From contig CAYPFT010000002.1 in the NCBI GenBank assembly GCA_964410165.1, forward strand, positions 367 through 64,366: a stretch of 64,000 bases of DNA, in the 5' to 3' direction. Position numbers and translations under genes: made by a program. The notes beneath the pieces are model-generated. The model did no database searches. It had not been told where the DNA came from and saw nothing but the letters and a program-made list of their open reading frames with translations. Below are positions 2,894-49,352 of this stretch, in pieces (position 1 is the stretch's first letter; each line of letters begins with the position of its first letter). This DNA comes from an uncultured Candidatus Saccharibacteria bacterium (lineage in GTDB: Bacteria > Patescibacteriota > Minisyncoccia > Phycocordibacterales > CAIJYI01).

Positions 2894-2966
2894 GGGCGGT
2901 TAGCTCAGTTGGTAGAGCAATTCGTTTACACCGAAAAGGTCAGAGGTTCAAGTCCTCTACCGCCCA
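2894..2966 (+). tRNA. tRNA-Val (anticodon TAC)
   Basis: GGGCGGT TA GCTC AGTTGGTA GAGC; anticodon loop TTTACAC; T-arm AGAGG TTCAAGT CCTCT; 3' acceptor ACCGCCC; discriminator A. Classic cloverleaf. Confidence 0.85.
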
Positions 2967-3262
2967 CAATAAAATCGTCCCGAAAGGGCGATTTTATTGT
3001 GGGCGGTAAGGAAGGCAACTGCTTGCCTTCCGTGAGGACTTGAAGGGCGCAGCGTTGTTTTTGTTTGCCCTGCAAGGGCAAGGCAAAAACCGCGAGCTGG
3101 GGAAGCGAAAAATTTCCGTCAGGAAATTTATTCGTTGACGATGTCCTCTACCGCCCACAAATTACAAAAATAGCGGAGAGACCGCCAAAGGGTGGACTCA
3201 CCGCATTTTTGAATTTGTGGGCGGTAAGTGAATGAACTGCTTCATTCACGTGAGGACTTGAA
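2945..3262. repeat. Two tandem units (~2945-3043 and ~3143-3262) built from the tRNA-Val T-arm/3' acceptor: a direct copy plus an interrupted inverted copy, forming long hairpins
   Basis: GTCCTCTACCGCCCACAA occurs at 2952 (the genuine tRNA end) and again at 3143. Each is followed by TTGTGGGCGGTAAG, a 7-bp-stem hairpin with loop ACTGCT, and GTGAGGACTTGAA, which is the reverse complement of the T-arm. The hairpin stems are GAAGGCA/TGCCTTC versus TGAATGA/TCATTCA; they differ at several positions but are fully compensated. Confidence 0.6.
3165..3215. repeat. Partial copy (~35 bp core) of the MITE family found at 11284 and 49113
   Basis: AGCGGAGAGACCGCCAAAGGGTGGACTCACCGCA closely matches GGCGGAGAGACCGCCAAAGGGCGGACTCACCGACC inside the 49113-49287 element. 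Confidence 0.4.
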
Positions 3263-3421
3263 CGACGGAGGCATGTTTTTTTCGAGGCCGGCAAAAACGG
3301 CCGAGTTGGTGCCCAGACAAACTTTTTCGCAAAAAAATTTAGTCGATGGAAAGACTTCTCTGTTGCAGGCGTGATTGGAAGGCTCGTGTTGTGTTTTTTA
3401 AATAAAGATATTTCGTGTATA

Positions 3422-10574: not shown

Positions 10575-11243
10575 TTATTCTTCGGTTTTGATTGGAACGA
10601 GAACCGATTTTTTACCGAAGCTCGCAAGCCATTCTTTGATTTTTCCCCTACATGGAGGAAGCGGGTCGCAGCTAATGAAAAATATTAAAAAGGTCACAAG
10701 AAGTTGAAAAACATTGTCGTATATTTGAATTTCCGGAATCGGCAACAGCACGAAGAGGGGCATTGTAACGATAAAATACAGACGAATAAAACGATATATA
10801 ATGTTTATCTTGAGGGGATTAGACAGTCCATGACTCATTCGGTCATATGCCCATGTTTCGTTTGTTTTCCACGCCCACGCGAAATGGTTGGTAAACATAA
10901 AAATGCCGAACCAAAACCATGTCGGATTTTTTCGGTCCAAAATAAGCGTATTTTCTCCGACAAGTTCTTTTGGAAACAGGTGATAATATATCCCCAAAGA
11001 AACCATGACGATTAAAAAACTGCATAATCCGGAGTAATAATAATTCGTTTTTCCCGTCCATCGTTGGAGGAAATGACACCCTTTTTCAAAGAGGGAAAGA
11101 AAGAACCAGTCAATTTTTTGAAACATAACAGTCTCCTTGTGGAAGTTGTGAAAATTCTTTTTTACCAACTTTAATATAGCATTTTTAAGTTTCTTTGTCA
11201 AATTTTTCCGCAAGAACCGGTTTTCCATGTCCACGGTATCCAC
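10575..11243 (-). CDS. Hypothetical polytopic membrane protein
   Basis: Several hydrophobic helices and Trp-rich loops (NHFAWAWKTNETWAYDRMSHG). No assignable family. The true start may be an internal Met (MFQKIDW...). Confidence 0.45.
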   Translation of the reverse strand: MDTVDMENRFLRKNLTKKLKNAILKLVKKNFHNFHKETVMFQKIDWFFLSLFEKGCHFLQRWTGKTNYYYSGLCSFLIVMVSLGIYYHLFPKELVGENTLILDRKNPTWFWFGIFMFTNHFAWAWKTNETWAYDRMSHGLSNPLKINIIYRFIRLYFIVTMPLFVLLPIPEIQIYDNVFQLLVTFLIFFISCDPLPPCRGKIKEWLASFGKKSVLVPIKTEE

Positions 11244-11283
11244 ACCTTTTTCGGCGGGGTTTTCTTTTTCGGTGTATAATTAA

Positions 11284-11498
11284 CTCACCTTACGCACGAT
11301 TACTGTATCGGTTTTTGGTCGGTTTCTCCGCCTCTTGGCGGTGGAACCGCCAAAAACTGATACCGGGGGTCGGAGATTTGGCGGTGAGACCTCCAAGAGG
11401 AGCGACCTAAAAAACAAGGAGTGCAACGACTATGTTTTTGGAAGTACTCTTTGTGGTGGACTCACCGACCAAATCTTTCCAGTCGTGCGTAAGGTGAG
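11284..11498. mobile_element. MITE-like non-autonomous element, copy 1 (215 bp)
   Basis: 16-bp perfect terminal inverted repeats, CTCACCTTACGCACGA and TCGTGCGTAAGGTGAG. Flanked by the 7-bp direct repeat TAATTAA (11277-11283 and 11499-11505). The interior is an extended imperfect palindrome. A second copy with the same inverted repeats is at 49113. Confidence 0.7.
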
Positions 11499-11556
11499 TA
11501 ATTAAAATAACTGCTTTTGAAAAACATTTAACAGTATTTTTTTAATAAAAAAACTT

Positions 11557-14500
11557 ATGCCACCGGACAAATCAAAATCAATTCTCATTTCGTCGATTTT
11601 TGGATTACTTGCCGTTATCGTCTTCGGACTCCTCTGGTTTTTCTTCCTCGCACCCGCCGTTCCCGCCGGTGCCGGATGGTTCATCTTCAGCTTCGCGGCG
11701 GGGCTGACGATGATCGTGCTTCCGTGCACGTTGCCGCTTGCTTTCGTCATCGTGCCGCTTTCTATGGGGAAGGGGGTGGCGAAGGGGATTGGCACGGCGC
11801 TTGCTTTTGCGTTCGGTATCGTCATTACTCTGAGCATATACGGCATCATCGCATCGCTCATCGGGAAAGCCGCTCTCGGCTCTCTCGGCGCTCCGCTTGA
11901 AACGGTCAAAAATTGGGTGTACTTCATAGCGGGAATTTTCGCGTATCTTTTCGCGCTCGGTTCCATAGGGCTTCTCGCCTTCAAAATGCCGACCTACACC
12001 GGCGCGGCTCCTGAGATCATTCAGAAAAAAGAAGACTATCTCAAGGCGTTTCTCATGGGGCTTTTTCTAGGAAATATCGGTATCGGATGTCCGCACCCCG
12101 CAACCCCGCTTCTTCTCATTGAGGCGGCGACGAGCGGCAATGTGCTGTACGGCTGGCTTCTCTTTTTCGTTCATGCCGTCGGACGCGTGCTCCCGCTCCT
12201 CTTCCTTGCCTTCATGGGGATTATGGGCGTGAACGGACTTTCGTGGCTTGTGGCGCGGAAGGAGAAAGTGGAACGCGCGACAGGGTGGGCGATGGTATTC
12301 GTCGGGGCGTTCATCTTGGTGCTCGGACTGTTCTCTCATGATTGGTGGGTCAATTCGGGACAGCACACGTTGCTTGAATCCATCACACAGGAAGAAACAA
12401 TCTTGAACGTCATTGGGGAGAAACTCAACACAGGGAACGCGCATAATCACGGACTTGAGGATGGTACCGGACTGTTCGGACTTCCGCTCTGGCTCGGGAA
12501 TTGGGTGCTGGTACTTCTGTGGGTCATCCCGTTCTTCTGGTATCTCCGAAAAGAAAAAGCGCGAATCGCGCAGATTCCCGAAGCAAACCAAGTACCCGAG
12601 CGCGTGGCGGAAGAAAATACGCGCCACATGAGAAGGAAGTTTTACATCGCACTCGCCATTGCGCTTGGCGCCATCTTTATTTACATTTTGCCGATGCGAT
12701 TTTACAACCAATCAATCGGTATCGGCGCGGGGCACGATGAAATGAAGATGACTGTTTCTGTCGGCGGCGAAACCTTTTCGCAAGACATTATCGGCCTTCC
12801 CGAAGCGAAGCCGTCCGAGGTCGTTTCGCTCAAAAACGGCGACACCTACACCCTCTCTCCTGGCGCGGTCTGGAAAGAAATAAACGGCAAGCGCGTAAAA
12901 ATGCTCGCGTACAACGGCATGATTCCGGGGCCGACGATTAAAGCGAAACAGGGGAGCGAGGTTATCATTCATTTCGTTAATAATTTGGAGATTAAAGATA
13001 CTCTGCATCCTCACGGCGTGCGCCTCAACAACAAATTTGATGGCGTGGCGGGGGTTACGCAAGAGCCGGTACTGCCCGGCGGATCATTTGACTACAAAAT
13101 CAAGTTTCCCGATTCGGGAATTTACTGGTACCACTCGCACATGAACGAGGCGTATACCCAGAATCTCGGCATGTATGGCGCGCTTCTCGTTGCTCCAAAA
13201 AGCGGCGAATTTTCCGGTCGTGAAGAAGTGGTTTTCTTGAGCGACTTGCTGATGAACGAAAGCGGCATCGCGCCATTCCCGAAAGACTTCACCGACCATG
13301 CGATGATGGGGCGATTCGGGAATACGATGCTTGTGAACGGAAGCACGAAGTATCGATTTATCGCGGCTCCCGGCGAGACAGTCCGTTTCCATTTCGTTGA
13401 TTCCGCCGTCGCGCGAACATTCCGATTGAGCATACTCGAAAAATGGGGAGGAGAGAAGGCGCAAAAGACTATTGTGACGCAAGTCGGGAGCGATGGGGGG
13501 GAAATGGAGCGCAAAATTGAGGTAGGCGAAGTAATCCTCAGTCCCGGCGAACGCGCAACGGTAGATATTCGTTTTCCTGAAAAAGAAGGAGCATACCATC
13601 TGTATCATGAATCGTCGAAACAACCATATTTACTTGCAACATTTGACGTAAAAGGCGAGGTACTGAAAGCCGCAAAAGAAATTACGTATGAAGACAAGCC
13701 GATTTTCTCAAAAGAAGAATTGAATCGTTATCGCATCGCGCCGCCCGACAAACGGATCAAGCTTTCTCTTGTGGCGGATATGAATGCGATGATGAAAGGC
13801 ATGGGCGATGGAATGATGATGCCGGCAGGCGCGGAACCCGCGGGGCATGATAATTCCGACGGACACCACGGAAGCGCGGGGATTGTTTCTGAAGCGCACG
13901 CGAGCACACCCATGCCTTTCGCCATGGACATGTCAAATATGCAGAACATGAATATGGGCGGCATGATGGGCGGCACACCGCAGAAGATAGAATGGGAAGA
14001 CGATATGGGCGCGATGAACGCCATGTCCAATTCCAACAGCGTGAAATGGGAAATAATAGACGAGGATAATGGCAGAGCAAACGGCGACATCAACTGGACG
14101 TTCAGTAAGGGAGACATGGTGAAGGTTCGGATTTTCAATGACCCGAAATCCATGCACCCAATGCAGCACCCGATACATTTCCATGGACAGCGATTCGTCG
14201 TGCTTGCGACGAACGGTGCGCCGAACGATAATATGGCGTGGAAAGACACGACGCTCGTGCAGACAGGGGACACCGTTGATATTCTCGTCGAGATGTCGAA
14301 CCCCGGCTTCTGGATGGCGCATTGCCACATCGCGGAACACCTCCACTCCGGCATGATGTTCGGTTTCGTGGTGAAAGACGGCAAAGTGGCGGCTGGGGGC
14401 GAAGAAGACTATAAAATTGTGATGCCGCAAGAACGAAGCCAACTCGCGTCAGCGTACGCATGGGCGCACGGCGATGAAGAAGACGGACATGAAGAACCCG

Positions 14501-14613
14501 CACCCGCCGCACAAGGGCAAGTGCCGATCAAATTCGTCCTCATTCTCGTTTCGCTTCTTCTCATGGGAGCTTTGAGTTACGGCGTCTGGCGGTATTTGGA
14601 TGTGAAGAAGTAA
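11557..14613 (+). CDS. Fusion of a CcdA/DsbD-like thiol-disulfide transporter membrane domain to a multicopper oxidase with a Met/His-rich segment and C-terminal membrane anchor
   Basis: The first ~260 aa have 6-8 transmembrane helices with Cys in LPCTLP and GCPHPATPLL, the CcdA pattern of one Cys in each of two helices. Multicopper oxidase copper ligands are present (HPHG, WYHSHMNE, HPIHFHG, HCHIAEHLHSGMM). There is a Met/His-rich insert (MMKGMGDGMMMP...NMQNMNMGGMMGG) and a terminal hydrophobic helix. Confidence 0.8.
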   Translation: MPPDKSKSILISSIFGLLAVIVFGLLWFFFLAPAVPAGAGWFIFSFAAGLTMIVLPCTLPLAFVIVPLSMGKGVAKGIGTALAFAFGIVITLSIYGIIASLIGKAALGSLGAPLETVKNWVYFIAGIFAYLFALGSIGLLAFKMPTYTGAAPEIIQKKEDYLKAFLMGLFLGNIGIGCPHPATPLLLIEAATSGNVLYGWLLFFVHAVGRVLPLLFLAFMGIMGVNGLSWLVARKEKVERATGWAMVFVGAFILVLGLFSHDWWVNSGQHTLLESITQEETILNVIGEKLNTGNAHNHGLEDGTGLFGLPLWLGNWVLVLLWVIPFFWYLRKEKARIAQIPEANQVPERVAEENTRHMRRKFYIALAIALGAIFIYILPMRFYNQSIGIGAGHDEMKMTVSVGGETFSQDIIGLPEAKPSEVVSLKNGDTYTLSPGAVWKEINGKRVKMLAYNGMIPGPTIKAKQGSEVIIHFVNNLEIKDTLHPHGVRLNNKFDGVAGVTQEPVLPGGSFDYKIKFPDSGIYWYHSHMNEAYTQNLGMYGALLVAPKSGEFSGREEVVFLSDLLMNESGIAPFPKDFTDHAMMGRFGNTMLVNGSTKYRFIAAPGETVRFHFVDSAVARTFRLSILEKWGGEKAQKTIVTQVGSDGGEMERKIEVGEVILSPGERATVDIRFPEKEGAYHLYHESSKQPYLLATFDVKGEVLKAAKEITYEDKPIFSKEELNRYRIAPPDKRIKLSLVADMNAMMKGMGDGMMMPAGAEPAGHDNSDGHHGSAGIVSEAHASTPMPFAMDMSNMQNMNMGGMMGGTPQKIEWEDDMGAMNAMSNSNSVKWEIIDEDNGRANGDINWTFSKGDMVKVRIFNDPKSMHPMQHPIHFHGQRFVVLATNGAPNDNMAWKDTTLVQTGDTVDILVEMSNPGFWMAHCHIAEHLHSGMMFGFVVKDGKVAAGGEEDYKIVMPQERSQLASAYAWAHGDEEDGHEEPAPAAQGQVPIKFVLILVSLLLMGALSYGVWRYLDVKK

Positions 14614-44864: not shown

Positions 44865-47800
44865 ATGCCTCAAAATTTTCTCAATCAAAAAAATAAAATC
44901 TTACAAAAATCTGGAACCGAATCCGGGGAAGTTATTCGTGGGCGAACCCTTGAAAAATCTAAAATCGCCGAAAGCGAAGAAAAAACCCTCGCTTTTTGGC
45001 GCGAGAATAACATTTTCCAAAAAACGCTTGAGGCGACGCGCGAGGGCGAGCCGTTTGTCTTTTACGATGGGCCGCCTTTTGCGACTGGGCTTCCGCACTA
45101 TGGGCATCTTTTGCAGGGGACAATCAAAGACACCGTACCGCGATACCAGACGATGCGCGGGCGATATGTCCGTCGCGTGTGGGGGTGGGACTGCCATGGA
45201 CTGCCGATTGAAAATCTTATTGAAGGAGAGCTCGGGCTGAAGCACAAAAAAGACATCGAAAACATCGGCATCGCGAATTTCAACGAGGCCGCGCGAAAAA
45301 GCGTGCTTCGCTACGATGAGGATTGGAAGAAAATCGTTCCGCGGATGGGGCGATGGATAGACATGGAGGCGAGCTACAAAACGATGGATTGGCAATACAC
45401 GGAATCTATTTGGTGGGCGTTCAAAACGCTCTACGACAAAGGACTTATTTATGAGGGATACAAGCCGATGCATATCTGCCCGCGATGCGAAACGACGCTG
45501 GCGAACTCTGAAGTAACGCTCAATTATCAGGATGTGAAAGATATTTCCGTAACGGCGAAGTTTGAGCTCGCAGATGAGCCGGGAACGTTCGTGCTTGCGT
45601 GGACGACCACGCCGTGGACGCTGCCGGGGAATGTCGCGCTTGCAATCGGTGAAGTTATTGAATACGTAAGAGTAGGAATTTGGAATCAGGAATTAGGAAT
45701 TAGGGAAACGTATATTGTGGCGAAAGAGCGGGTGGAAACGGTATTCGCAGGCAAGGAGTATGAGATACTTGGATTAGTGCATAATCCGGATTTGATAGGC
45801 AAAAAATACAAACCTGTTTTTGACTATTACACTGGCGACGAGAAGCTTCCAAACCGCGAGAACGGCTGGAAAATAGTTGTGGCGGAATTCGTGACGACGG
45901 ATACCGGTACGGGCGTTGTCCACATTGCTCCGGCGTTCGGAGAGGAAGACATGGCGCTCGGCATCGTACAAAATTTGCCGTTCATTCAGCATGTCGGCAT
46001 GGGCGGGGTTTTCAAACCCGAAGTAACAGACTTTGCGGGAATGCCGGTGAAGACGAAAGGCGACACGCAATCGGCGGATGTGGCGGTCATAAAATATCTC
46101 GCGGCACACGGCACGCTGTTTGCAAAAGAAAAAATAGAGCACTCCTACCCGATGTGCTGGCGGTGCGACACGCCGCTTTTGAATTACGCCGCGAGCTCGT
46201 GGTTTGTGAAAGTTACCGCGCTTAAAGAAAAGATGCTTTCAGAAAATGAAAACATTTCGTGGGTGCCGGAGAACATGAAGCACGGTCGTTTCGGAAAATG
46301 GCTCGAAGGCGCCCGCGACTGGGCCATCTCCCGCTCGCGATATTGGGGCGCGCCGATTCCGGTCTGGAAATGCGACAAATGTGAAAAACTTGATGTTATT
46401 GGTTCTGTGTCGGATTTGCGCAAAAACATCAAGCCCAAAAATCAGTATTTTGTGATGCGGCACGGGGAGGCGGAACATAATGCGACCAACACTGTGAGTT
46501 CGAAGCCGGAAAATCCAACACACCTTACAGAAAAGGGAAAAGAGGAAGTTAGGGTGGCGACGGAAGGACTAAAAGATAAAAAAATTGACTTCATTTTCGC
46601 GTCCGATTTCGTGCGCACAAAAGAAACGGCGGAAATGGTTGCGGGAATGCTCGGAATTCCAAAAGATAAAATCGTGTACGATGAACGTTTGCGTGAAATA
46701 AATGCCGGTGATTTCGACGGAAGACCGATTTCAGAATACCGCGCTTATTTTCCCAGACTCCTTGAAAGGTTTACGAAGCCTGCACCGAACGGCGAGAATG
46801 TCGTTGGTGTCAAAGTGCGGGCAATGGATTTTCTTTCGGAAACCGACGCGAGAGAAGCGGGAAAAAATATTTTGCTCGTTACCCATGAATACGTGGCATG
46901 GATGCTTGCCACCGGAGTGAAAGGGCTCTCAAAAGAAGATTCTTGCCGCGAGAAAGAGGGGAAAGATGATTTTATCGTAACCGGAGGAGTGCTTTCTATT
47001 TCTTACGCGCCGTTCCCGCACAACGCCGATTACGAGCTCGACCTGCACCGACCCTACATAGACGACATCGTGCTTCCGTGCAAATGCGGCGGCGATATGA
47101 AGCGCGTGCCGGAAGTTTTTGACTGCTGGTTTGAATCCGGGTCAATGCCGTACGCGCAGTTTCATTACCCGTTTGAAAACGAACAAGAATTTAAGCGCAA
47201 TTTTCCCGCGGATTTTATCGCCGAAGCGGTAGATCAGACGCGCGGATGGTTTTACAACATGCACGCGCTTTCCGTCGGGCTTTTTGGAGAACGGGCATTT
47301 AAGAACGTTATTACGACCGGACTTATTCTTGCGGAAGACGGACAGAAAATGTCCAAGAAGCTCAAGAATTATCCCGACCCGATGGATGTGGTAGAAAAAT
47401 ACGGCGCGGACGCACTCCGGTATTACCTGCTTTCTTCCCCGGTGGTTGTCGGAGAAGAGCTTCGTTTTTCTGAAAAAGGCGTGGACGAGGTGTACAAAAA
47501 GATTGTGATACGCCTGCAGAATGTCGCGGCGTTTTATGAACTGTATCGCGACGTATCAGGGAACAGTATCAGTATCAGGGAGATGACGAATGTTCTTGAT
47601 GAGTGGATTTTGGCTCGGCTCGCAGAGTTAGTTGCTGAAGTGGAAGCGGGGATGGAGGGTTACGAGCTCGACCGCGCGGCTCGGCCGTTTATGCTTTTCA
47701 TTGATGACCTTTCCACATGGTATTTGCGCCGTTCTCGCGACCGAATGAAAGGGAAAGAGGGAAAAGCCGGCGAAGAAGAAGATACGAATAATGCCCGCGC

Positions 47801-48443
47801 AACACTCCGCCACGTGCTTTTGGAGCTCTCAAAAACCCTCGCGCCATTCATGCCGTTTCTTGCGGAAGATGTGTACAAACGCGCGGACGGGGAGAGGGAG
47901 AGTGTACATTTGGAACAAATCACAAATCCCAAATCCCAAATTCCAAACGCAGACGTACTTGTCCAAATGCAGGAAGCAAGGAAGGTTGTAGCAATGGGAC
48001 TTGAAGCACGCGCAAAAGCTGGGATTAAAGTGCGTCAACCTCTTGAAACGATCAAAACAACCATTACATTTTCCGGCGGCGGTATCATTATTTCTGATTT
48101 ATTCGGTACAATAAAAGCTGAACTTAATGTCAAGAATGTTTTGTTGGGACAAGATAAAGATGAGTTGGATACCGTTATAACCCCAGAACTCAAAGAAGAG
48201 GGAATGGTACGCGAATTCATCCGCCACGTGCAAGAGCTTCGTAAAAAGGAAGATTTAAGCCCCGCCGATAAAGATCGCATACTTCTTGTTTCCACCGACG
48301 AAGAGGGAGAAACATTCCTTAAAAAATTTGAAGCGGAGATAAAAAGAGCAACGCTTTTCGCCGCCGTGGAGTATCGGGAACCAAATGAGGGAGAGCAGAC
48401 GAAAGTAGAACATATCTTATTCTCTCTCGCGATAAAAAAGTAG
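44865..48443 (+). CDS. ileS: Isoleucine--tRNA ligase carrying an internal histidine-phosphatase (PGAM-like) domain
   Basis: HIGH (HYGHLL) and KMSKS (KMSKKL) motifs, editing domain and zinc knuckles. Residues ~527-720 (nt ~46440-47030) contain RHGEAEHN, ASDFVRTKETAE, LVTHEYV: the RHG...H signature of the histidine phosphatase superfamily. The insert sits between the CDKC knuckle and DLHRPYIDD. 1192 aa. Confidence 0.85.
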   Translation: MPQNFLNQKNKILQKSGTESGEVIRGRTLEKSKIAESEEKTLAFWRENNIFQKTLEATREGEPFVFYDGPPFATGLPHYGHLLQGTIKDTVPRYQTMRGRYVRRVWGWDCHGLPIENLIEGELGLKHKKDIENIGIANFNEAARKSVLRYDEDWKKIVPRMGRWIDMEASYKTMDWQYTESIWWAFKTLYDKGLIYEGYKPMHICPRCETTLANSEVTLNYQDVKDISVTAKFELADEPGTFVLAWTTTPWTLPGNVALAIGEVIEYVRVGIWNQELGIRETYIVAKERVETVFAGKEYEILGLVHNPDLIGKKYKPVFDYYTGDEKLPNRENGWKIVVAEFVTTDTGTGVVHIAPAFGEEDMALGIVQNLPFIQHVGMGGVFKPEVTDFAGMPVKTKGDTQSADVAVIKYLAAHGTLFAKEKIEHSYPMCWRCDTPLLNYAASSWFVKVTALKEKMLSENENISWVPENMKHGRFGKWLEGARDWAISRSRYWGAPIPVWKCDKCEKLDVIGSVSDLRKNIKPKNQYFVMRHGEAEHNATNTVSSKPENPTHLTEKGKEEVRVATEGLKDKKIDFIFASDFVRTKETAEMVAGMLGIPKDKIVYDERLREINAGDFDGRPISEYRAYFPRLLERFTKPAPNGENVVGVKVRAMDFLSETDAREAGKNILLVTHEYVAWMLATGVKGLSKEDSCREKEGKDDFIVTGGVLSISYAPFPHNADYELDLHRPYIDDIVLPCKCGGDMKRVPEVFDCWFESGSMPYAQFHYPFENEQEFKRNFPADFIAEAVDQTRGWFYNMHALSVGLFGERAFKNVITTGLILAEDGQKMSKKLKNYPDPMDVVEKYGADALRYYLLSSPVVVGEELRFSEKGVDEVYKKIVIRLQNVAAFYELYRDVSGNSISIREMTNVLDEWILARLAELVAEVEAGMEGYELDRAARPFMLFIDDLSTWYLRRSRDRMKGKEGKAGEEEDTNNARATLRHVLLELSKTLAPFMPFLAEDVYKRADGERESVHLEQITNPKSQIPNADVLVQMQEARKVVAMGLEARAKAGIKVRQPLETIKTTITFSGGGIIISDLFGTIKAELNVKNVLLGQDKDELDTVITPELKEEGMVREFIRHVQELRKKEDLSPADKDRILLVSTDEEGETFLKKFEAEIKRATLFAAVEYREPNEGEQTKVEHILFSLAIKK

Positions 48444-48937: not shown

Positions 48938-49112
48938 TCAATCTCCCGTATCACCTCTTCGCTTTGCATGAAGCGGTAGAAGAGTGCCGCGACGATGAAA
49001 GCGATGATCATCATGACGACGGCGTACTTTCCAAAGACGTTCGAGCTTTTGCCGAAGTAGTAGCCGATGCCGAGAAAGGGAAACGTCCAGATGATGGAAG
49101 TGATGAGGATAA
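48938..49112 (-). pseudogene. C-terminal fragment of a DedA-like membrane protein gene, truncated by MITE insertion
   Basis: The minus-strand frame reads ILITSIIWTFPFLGIGYYFGKSSNVFGKYAVVMMIIAFIVAALFYRFMQSEEVIREIEK*, a hydrophobic DedA-like C-terminus with GYYFG. It runs directly into the MITE terminal repeat at 49113, and there is no room for an N-terminal part beyond the element. Confidence 0.4.
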
Positions 49113-49287
49113 CTCACCTTACGCACGATTGTGATACCGTACGGTTTCGGCGTAGAATTTTGGTCGGTTTCTCCGCCCCTTGGCGGTGGAACCGCCAAAA
49201 TAGAGCGTCGGAAGCGGAAGATTTGGCGGAGAGACCGCCAAAGGGCGGACTCACCGACCAAATCTTTCCCGTCGTGCGTAAGGTGAG
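49113..49287. mobile_element. MITE-like element, copy 2 (175 bp)
   Basis: Same 16-bp terminal inverted repeats CTCACCTTACGCACGA/TCGTGCGTAAGGTGAG. Flanked by the 7-bp direct repeat AGGATAA (49106-49112 and 49288-49294). The interior is ~85% identical to copy 1. Confidence 0.7.
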
Positions 49288-49352
49288 AGGATAATTGGTA
49301 TGTAGAGCACGCGGTTCATTTTGGAAAGTCCGGCGGAAAAGGCGATGGCGCT

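Follow-up and report, generated by a model that had tools for sequence, protein, structure and literature searches.

Two short, related elements lie in the stretch of DNA analysed here, a 64-kb window from an uncultured Candidatus Saccharibacteria bacterium (64,000 nucleotides; 'the window' means this whole stretch): copy 1 at 11284–11498 (215 bp) and copy 2 at 49113–49287 (175 bp), both given on the plus strand. Each is bounded by terminal inverted repeats (TIRs) of 16 bp, and we found that all four tips are exactly CTCACCTTACGCACGA or its reverse complement. The left TIRs lie on the plus strand (11284–11299 and 49113–49128) and the right TIRs on the minus strand (11483–11498 and 49272–49287), the right end of copy 1 reading TCGTGCGTAAGGTGAG on the plus strand. 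Searching the window with this 16-mer at up to three mismatches returned exactly these four sites, against 0.32 expected, and none of 100 shuffled sequences reached four. An identical 7-mer abuts both tips of each copy: TAATTAA for copy 1 (11277–11283 and 11499–11505) and AGGATAA for copy 2 (49106–49112 and 49288–49294). A preliminary description of this DNA had reported two copies with perfect 16-bp TIRs and their own 7-bp direct repeats, and both the coordinates and the repeats were reproduced here. Copy 1 occupies the space between two divergent genes and is separated by 58 bp from the ATG (11557) of the downstream one, which encodes a DsbD_TM–multicopper oxidase; that description had placed it immediately upstream of this gene. 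Copy 2 splits a hydrophobic minus-strand frame of 79 codons, and excising it together with one AGGATAA restores the frame without interruption.

Aligned with each other, the two copies are 95% identical over 151 alignable positions and 60% identical over the whole gapped alignment. They are separated by three indel blocks: about 17 extra nucleotides on the left of copy 2, a short spacer, and about 55 extra nucleotides in copy 1 at the apex of the second of two hairpins described below (hairpin B). This takes the place of the uniform interior identity of about 85% that had been claimed earlier. The likeness ends precisely at the TIR tips, beyond which the copies have unrelated flanks; this favours transposition, as previously proposed, over duplication of a genomic segment. 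The right junctions of both copies were reproduced by independent Logan short-read assemblies, in contigs L001 (copy 1) and L109 (copy 2) of runs SRR4343428 and SRR4343430. L001 ends 27 nt and L109 about 30 nt inside the respective right end; these assemblies break inside the copies because the sequence is repeated, and k=31-type assemblies of the organism are fragmented there.

To look for the source of the ends, we scanned one genome per prokaryotic species with the 16-mer. About half of the matches listed fell by chance within conserved genes, one of them enterobacterial and another widespread; many others marked the tip of an element, with TAA frequently in front of it and sequence particular to the lineage behind. 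The matches listed include no contig from the genome of the window. Pairing the tips among these listed matches yielded two full-length insertion sequences (ISs), one of 1159 bp in a Bacteroidetes metagenome-assembled genome (MAG; L006, 107–1265) and one of 1152 bp in a Rubrobacteraceae MAG (L038, 1621–2772). Each contains one open reading frame (ORF), of 359–361 aa. These frames score 325 (L006) and 345 bits (L038) on the NCBIfam model NF049921, 'IS701 family transposase' (ISAba11-like; cut-off 250), and match Pfam DDE_5 (E=2e-15 and 6e-19, respectively). The right TIR of L038 encodes the last transposase codons and the stop (..CVR*), and in MAGs of Legionellaceae, Chloroflexia and Rubrobacter, contigs end in partial transposase copies that adjoin the 16-mer. 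Using four related transposases, we fetched 15 further full-length copies from metagenomes (L110–L124; 1157–1169 bp), all of which end in CTCACCTTACGCA...TCGTGCGTAAGGTGAG. The 16-mer, or its first 13 nt, is therefore present at both ends of 17 full-length IS701-family elements. Most of these carry the full 16-mer at the right end only, their left ends reading CTCACCTTACGCA followed by A-rich bases; L006 has the 16-mer at its left end. A full-length IS sharing the termini of the window elements, which the preliminary description had left to be sought, was thus found in L006, L038 and the 15 metagenome copies.

This group of transposases is large. At least 8,000 protein clusters (at 90% identity) are related to the L038 transposase, all 8,000 scoring E≤1e-10, and the best 120 of the 8,000 are 80–94% identical to it; the named proteins among these best 120 come from Actinomycetota, Deinococcota and Acidobacteriota (Pyrinomonadaceae) MAGs. 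A more distant homologue on a cyanobacterial plasmid (53% identity), annotated as 'group ISAba11 transposase', has the related ends CTGATGTTACGCA. In at least six phyla the 16-bp end is the same to the letter, which is partly a result of searching for exact matches and also fits the presence of 80–94% identical transposases. Such close transposases named from different phyla appear to point to frequent horizontal transfer. By contrast with these elements, the window holds no cognate transposase gene: a tblastn search of the 64 kb with IS701-family transposases gave no homologue (best E=1.3), in line with the earlier statement, and the window elements are therefore non-autonomous.

The ends recur on other miniature elements, and these bear on the nature of the flanking 7-mers. 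Among the matches listed, at least ten transposable elements of the miniature inverted-repeat type (MITEs; 94–190 bp) that share the TIR are flanked by perfect 7-bp repeats, all of them different (TTATTAA, TTAAAAG, TTATAAA, TTAATTG, TCATTAA, TTCATAA, TTAAGTG, TTATTAT, TTAGAAA and CTTTTAA). Among the organisms that carry them are Treponema and Aggregatilineales MAGs, one uncultured bacterium and one MAG from groundwater. The full-length ISs are flanked by duplications of TTATTCA (7 bp) in L110/L111 and of TTACATAA (8 bp) in L115, and where the two sides of one IS insertion lie on different contigs we found duplications of TTGATAA (7 bp) and TCCGAGTAA (9 bp). Pooled, 17 duplications are 85% A+T by our count. 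TTA at the start, TAA at the end, or both are common among them, and this accounts for the TAA so often seen in front of the left tip. Because their sequence varies between insertions that share one TIR, the flanking 7-mers are best read as target-site duplications lying outside the element. The preliminary description had taken them as such and had named the opposite case, in which they would be part of the element; the repeats differ at each insertion, so that case fails.

Two observations made alongside concern the same material. MITEs with this TIR (94–190 bp) occur in multiple copies, among the matches listed, in Treponema, Aggregatilineales, Anaerolineae, Thiomargarita and other MAGs (L029, L034, L043, L045, L047, L054, L062, L071, L085, L089, L092, L094 and L095), each lineage having its own GC-rich hairpin interior, and one Aggregatilineales MAG has at least seven 16-mer matches. 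The metagenome contigs that hold full-length ISs (L116–L118 and L119–L124) often join the left flank of one insertion to the right flank of another, the left flank of L124 pairing with the right flank of L120 and the left flank of L121 with the right flank of L122; we attribute these mismatched flanks to chimeric assembly across a multicopy IS.

Copies 1 and 2 are non-coding. In a protein search designed to find MITE copies that had been mis-called as ORFs, the 58-aa translation of the open frame of copy 2 had no homologue. A short peptide considered in copy 1 (AAGGAG, 10 nt, then ATG and a 21-codon frame running to the TGA of the TIR) was set aside, since by our reading the homologous segment of L126, a related locus, is frameshifted. 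With TIRs that equal the ends of an autonomous IS, duplications specific to each insertion and no transposase in the window, the two copies very probably belong to a non-autonomous, non-coding MITE family that uses the ends of the compact (~1.16 kb) ISAba11-like clade of the IS701 family (NF049921). The earlier proposal of a MITE family inserted by a transposase acting on its ends is upheld by these data.

The interiors of the elements are dominated by secondary structure. Folded as single-stranded DNA, copy 1 reaches −68.7 kcal/mol (z=−12.5 against shuffles) and copy 2 −63.2 kcal/mol (z=−11.4 against shuffles), and the predicted fold is a terminal stem formed by the TIRs around two GC-rich hairpins, A and B. 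Hairpin A has the form TTTTGGTCGG..CCGCCAAAA and lies at 11313–11355 (+) in copy 1, where it reads TTTTGGTCGGTTTCTCCGCC-TCTT-GGCGGTGGAACCGCCAAAA, and at 49158–49200 (+) in copy 2, the two being 97.7% identical. Hairpin B, GATTTGGCGG..CCGACCAAATC, is present in copy 1 as a long form with the extra ~55 nt in its apex (11375–11475, +), which is 92% identical in L126 and its partner L130, and in copy 2 as a short form, GATTTGGCGGAGAGACCGCC-AAAG-GGCGGACTCACCGACCAAATC (49220–49264, +); the hairpins of copy 2 were placed by folding and by alignment of the hairpins. Hairpin B is approximately the reverse complement of hairpin A, and the whole element is therefore near-palindromic. The preliminary description had likewise reported palindromic interiors in both copies.

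An alignment of ten hairpin units, taken both from the window and from related loci, showed covariation: 94% of the cells were paired and 4 of 12 pairs were altered on both sides, as in the change from CCGCC/GGCGG to CCTCC/GGAGG, and no shuffle reached the covariation score. This shows that the hairpin is maintained and leaves the reason for its maintenance aside, because the arms of a DNA palindrome can co-vary without an RNA function. At gathering score, only two tRNAs in the window matched Rfam, and neither MITE copy did. Look-alikes of mir-255, mir-957 and twister-P3 in the copies were sub-threshold (~21–22 bits) and were discarded, permissive Rfam scans giving nothing above 22 bits. Simple scans found neither a sigma-70-like promoter facing outward nor a terminator-like site within or beside either copy, and a role of the MITE hairpins as terminators was rejected since no T-run follows them.

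To find closer relatives, we scanned metagenomes with a degenerate pattern of hairpin B and recovered six loci (L126–L131). Two of them, L127 and L131, show an intact 176-bp member with perfect 16-bp TIRs, hairpin A followed by hairpin B, and TGATATAA as its 8-bp duplication. Where this member and copy 2 align, their identity is 83%, and it occupies another divergent intergenic region. L128 and L129, on a single contig, are decayed copies whose TIRs are degenerate or missing. In L126/L130, hairpin B is of the long form, at 92% identity to copy 1, and stands together with an A-like hairpin and without TIRs. A one-hairpin relative of 105 bp with a decayed right TIR was found in a Saccharibacteria MAG (L025). 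Members of the family are thus present on three other metagenome contigs in addition to the two copies in the 64-kb window, and the designation as a family holds through the intact member and the decayed ones. At the DNA level, these loci matched the window nowhere apart from the elements, and a tblastn search of the family loci that resemble the candidate phyla radiation (CPR) with the transposases gave no homologue up to E=1. When metagenomes were scanned with the 30 nucleotides at the right end of the MITE, nothing matched; the window's strain is absent from that collection.

The preliminary description had also listed a third, partial core copy at 3165–3215, inside a tRNA-Val repeat region. 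Related sequence is indeed present there: a 31-nt stretch at 3173–3203 (+) matches the apex of hairpin B of copy 2 at 30 of 31 positions (97%, E=6e-10). It has neither TIRs nor a flanking duplication and is not a MITE copy, and the nearby tRNAs are tRNA-Arg as well as tRNA-Val. We refer to it as a solo hairpin; it may be a remnant left by decay, or it may show that the hairpin exists independently of the MITE. It is nested in a larger palindrome (3149–3226) downstream of the duplicated tRNA-Val 3' end, one arm of the palindrome being the duplicated 18-nt tRNA-Val 3' end, and it is bordered by A- and T-runs, as in a bidirectional terminator.

The surrounding tRNA region is itself repetitive. 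The 18-nt tRNA-Val 3' end (GTCCTCTACCGCCCACAA) is repeated 191 bp downstream (window 2952–3280), and behind each copy comes a long hairpin, one arm of which is the tRNA 3' end itself, and after the hairpin a 66-nt segment with 76% identity between its two occurrences. Likewise, 20 nt comprising the tRNA-Arg 5' start and a few preceding bases recur 170 bp upstream (2568–2587 and 2738–2757). The appearance of these repeats is that of att-site duplications left by integrating elements, or of tandem tRNA copies that have decayed.

Several observations weigh against derivation from the ISAba11-like clade or against recent mobility. The subterminal sequence of the MITE differs from that of the sampled full-length ISs immediately past the 16-mer, where the IS ends read ...ACGAACCA/ACAA or ...GCAAAAGCC; judged from these sequences, the proposed descent is carried by the 16-nt TIR alone. 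The duplications measure 7 bp in the window and 7–9 bp in the cognate ISs and related MITEs, against the 4–5 bp quoted as usual for direct repeats of the IS701 family (Siguier 2015, as cited in PMC8024623). In the same family, ISGka1 and ISGka2 were shown experimentally to produce variable direct repeats of 4–9 bp at AT-rich hot spots (PMC8024623), and given these two elements duplication length is not strictly defining for the family. No full-length IS of this IS701 clade was present in any CPR contig examined, so that a candidate helper is lacking there. Only two copies are visible, within a 64-kb window. Hairpin cores without TIRs exist (3173–3203 and L126/L130), and the hairpins may therefore be a separate repeat that was captured between the TIRs. 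Finally, no empty-site allele was found, and mobility is read from the footprints. The GH26 protein next to copy 2 has a cluster mate at 90% identity from a 'Parcubacteria group bacterium', and a Parcubacteria locus whose GH26 region is 91% identical in DNA (L125) loses synteny at the end of the gene, before the insertion site; for the left neighbour of copy 1 and for the isoleucyl-tRNA synthetase gene, no recorded counterpart was found.

In one variant of the MITE interpretation, these are orphan MITEs of ultra-small CPR genomes (Parcubacteria and Saccharibacteria) that have no cognate transposase at all. We regard this as unlikely. If it were true, the transposase behind the recent insertions would have to come from beyond the cell lineage, and its donor could be a host bacterium or a transient plasmid or phage. 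Instead of this or in addition to it, the conserved, covarying hairpins could have been recruited as an RNA-level module for regulation or stability ahead of genes such as that of the copper oxidase.

A second explanation places the mobile or functional unit in the GC-rich hairpin itself, as a repeat of Parcubacteria that is REP-like (repetitive extragenic palindromic) or a structured RNA, with TIRs that are incidental or have captured it. The hairpins without TIRs at 3173–3203 and in L126/L130, the latter with a long hairpin B so close to that of copy 1, would fit this explanation, as would the pairing kept through compensatory changes and the lineage-specific hairpins held by same-TIR MITEs of other phyla. 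However, the whole unit in the window is bounded by TIRs and perfect duplications, and the intact member in L127/L131 repeats the order TIR–A–B–TIR at an unrelated site, again with a duplication. Degenerate or missing TIRs beside the same core in L128 and L129 indicate that decay readily explains copies without TIRs. A single solo hairpin in 64 kb is unlike REP families, no Rfam family was matched, and no terminator-like T-run follows the MITE hairpins. A hairpin-based unit is therefore quite improbable as the origin of the two copies.

A third explanation is independent decay of full-length ISs. Were each copy a remnant left by internal deletion of an IS at its own site, with no miniature family transposing, the identity of the TIRs to those of full-length ISs would follow, and internal deletion is a known route to MITEs. 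Yet about 150 nt of interior are common to both copies at 95% identity, this interior is unlike the IS body, and other metagenome contigs carry it too; deletions arising separately would not arrive at the same foreign sequence, and we consider this origin very unlikely. Segmental duplication or an artefact of MAG assembly, for which the metagenomic origin of the contig and the breaks of short-read assemblies at the elements might speak, is almost certainly not the explanation, given likeness that stops exactly at the TIR tips between unrelated flanks, a separate duplication for each copy, right junctions reproduced in Logan assemblies of two runs, and homologous elements in unrelated datasets.

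If the copies are MITEs of the ISAba11-like clade, as we think very probable, their insertion can be pictured from the known behaviour of DDE ISs. The 16-bp TIRs would serve as the binding and cleavage sites of the clade's DDE transposase, which, acting in trans, would pair both TIRs and cut the element out or copy it. The 3' ends would then be joined to an AT-rich target resembling TTAnTAA with a stagger of 7 nt, or occasionally 8–9 nt, and repair of the stagger would produce the flanking direct repeats. With no cognate transposase in the 64-kb window, the helper may reside elsewhere in the genome, may be present only transiently or may have been lost. Because the TIRs and duplications are perfect, both insertions would appear to be evolutionarily recent.

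On comparison with the sampled ISs, the MITE interior is apparently not derived from the IS body. Hairpin B being approximately the reverse complement of hairpin A suggests that both halves of the MITE came from one end and its subterminal hairpin. Furthermore, because the MITE is palindromic with the full 16-mer at both ends and most ISs have it only at the right, we would suggest, loosely, that the founder was built from two right IS ends; the left 16-mer of L006 weighs against this.

The insertions probably have no effect beyond the insertional one. Copy 1 separates the copper oxidase gene from its former upstream sequence, and any transcript reading through the element would gain a strong hairpin. 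The oxidase gene (11557–14613, +) encodes a 1018-aa multicopper oxidase with a fused N-terminal DsbD_TM membrane domain and heads a copper island, seen in the window and in L001, with a cupredoxin and an HMA P-type ATPase; this island is interleaved with toxin–antitoxin-like genes (DUF4258/DUF2283, NTP_transf_2, AbiEii and YafQ). On the other side, a promoter-like site of the left neighbour lies on the minus strand about 80 bp from copy 1. This near-consensus sigma-70-like promoter (11173–11201; TTGACA, 17 nt, TG-TATATT; 11 of 12 matches) falls inside the listed ORF 10575–11243, and the left-neighbour gene probably starts downstream of the GTG at 11243.

Around copy 2, the preliminary description had placed a decayed membrane-protein gene. 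The part of that claim that stands is the hydrophobic 79-codon frame restored by excision; no family was assigned to the restored frame by a Pfam search, and a first impression of a DedA-family fragment found no confirmation there. The frame begins directly after the stop of the neighbouring GH26 gene and has no Pfam family, and for these reasons it is an ORF remnant that was truncated already. Elsewhere in the window, a histidine-phosphatase domain (His_Phos_1, residues 529–691, 107 bits) is inserted midway in the class-I catalytic domain of the isoleucyl-tRNA synthetase (44865–48443, +; 1192 aa).

The closest known relatives of these elements are ISDge5, ISDge12 and ISDge14 of Deinococcus geothermalis and ISAba11 of Acinetobacter, all in the compact ISAba11-like clade of the IS701 family. 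ISDge5 is 1162 bp long with a 1092-nt gene and a 16-nt TIR (PMC8369957), and the cognate ISs identified here resemble ISDge5, ISDge12 and ISDge14 in size, in TIR length and in a right TIR that overlaps the 3' end of the transposase gene, as in L038 (PMC8369957). The ISDge5 TIR reads CTCAGGAGTTGCACCT (PMC8533066), compared with CTCACCTTACGCACGA in the window elements, and its duplication is 5 bp (PMC8369957), compared with 7 bp (7–9 bp) here; unlike the ISDge5 clade, the window elements have no transposase gene. ISGka1 and ISGka2 of Geobacillus kaustophilus, with AT-rich repeats of 4–9 bp (PMC8024623), match the duplications of 7–9 bp and 85% A+T seen here. The likeness concerns the duplications; unlike the window MITEs, ISGka1 and ISGka2 are autonomous.

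As miniature elements, copies 1 and 2 resemble bacterial MITEs such as Correia/NEMIS of Neisseria, RUP of Streptococcus pneumoniae and MITEAba12 of Acinetobacter (PMC6382973) in their size of 175–215 bp, their IS-family TIRs and their target-site duplications. They also share with bacterial MITEs the lack of coding capacity, a strongly self-complementary interior and intergenic or pseudogene sites. They differ from Correia/NEMIS, RUP and MITEAba12 in parent family, TIR, duplication length and their CPR host. In Correia elements the target duplication is TA, and promoter, IHF and RNase III features are present; of such expression signals, no outward promoter or terminator was found in the window copies. 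The solo hairpin at 3173–3203 resembles REPs and bacterial interspersed mosaic elements (BIMEs), which are GC-rich, imperfect intergenic hairpins. REPs, which are linked to RAYT (Y1) transposases, have no TIRs or target duplications, whereas the window elements have both.

These are ordinary MITEs from a known IS family, and they leave the understanding of transposition unchanged. What is new is the specific family, its occurrence in CPR bacteria and the record of 7–9-bp duplications for the clade. Our literature search found no description of MITEs in CPR bacteria, and a search for the TIR sequence returned nothing relevant. The elements thus document active-looking transposon miniatures in a CPR genome, apparently for the first time for this group in the literature searched. 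Duplications of 7–9 bp at AT-rich, TTAnTAA-like targets are useful for IS annotation. The TIR can also serve as a probe: it marks breaks in short-read assemblies and lends itself to a census of copies, to the search for empty sites and to dating the activity of these elements in CPR populations.

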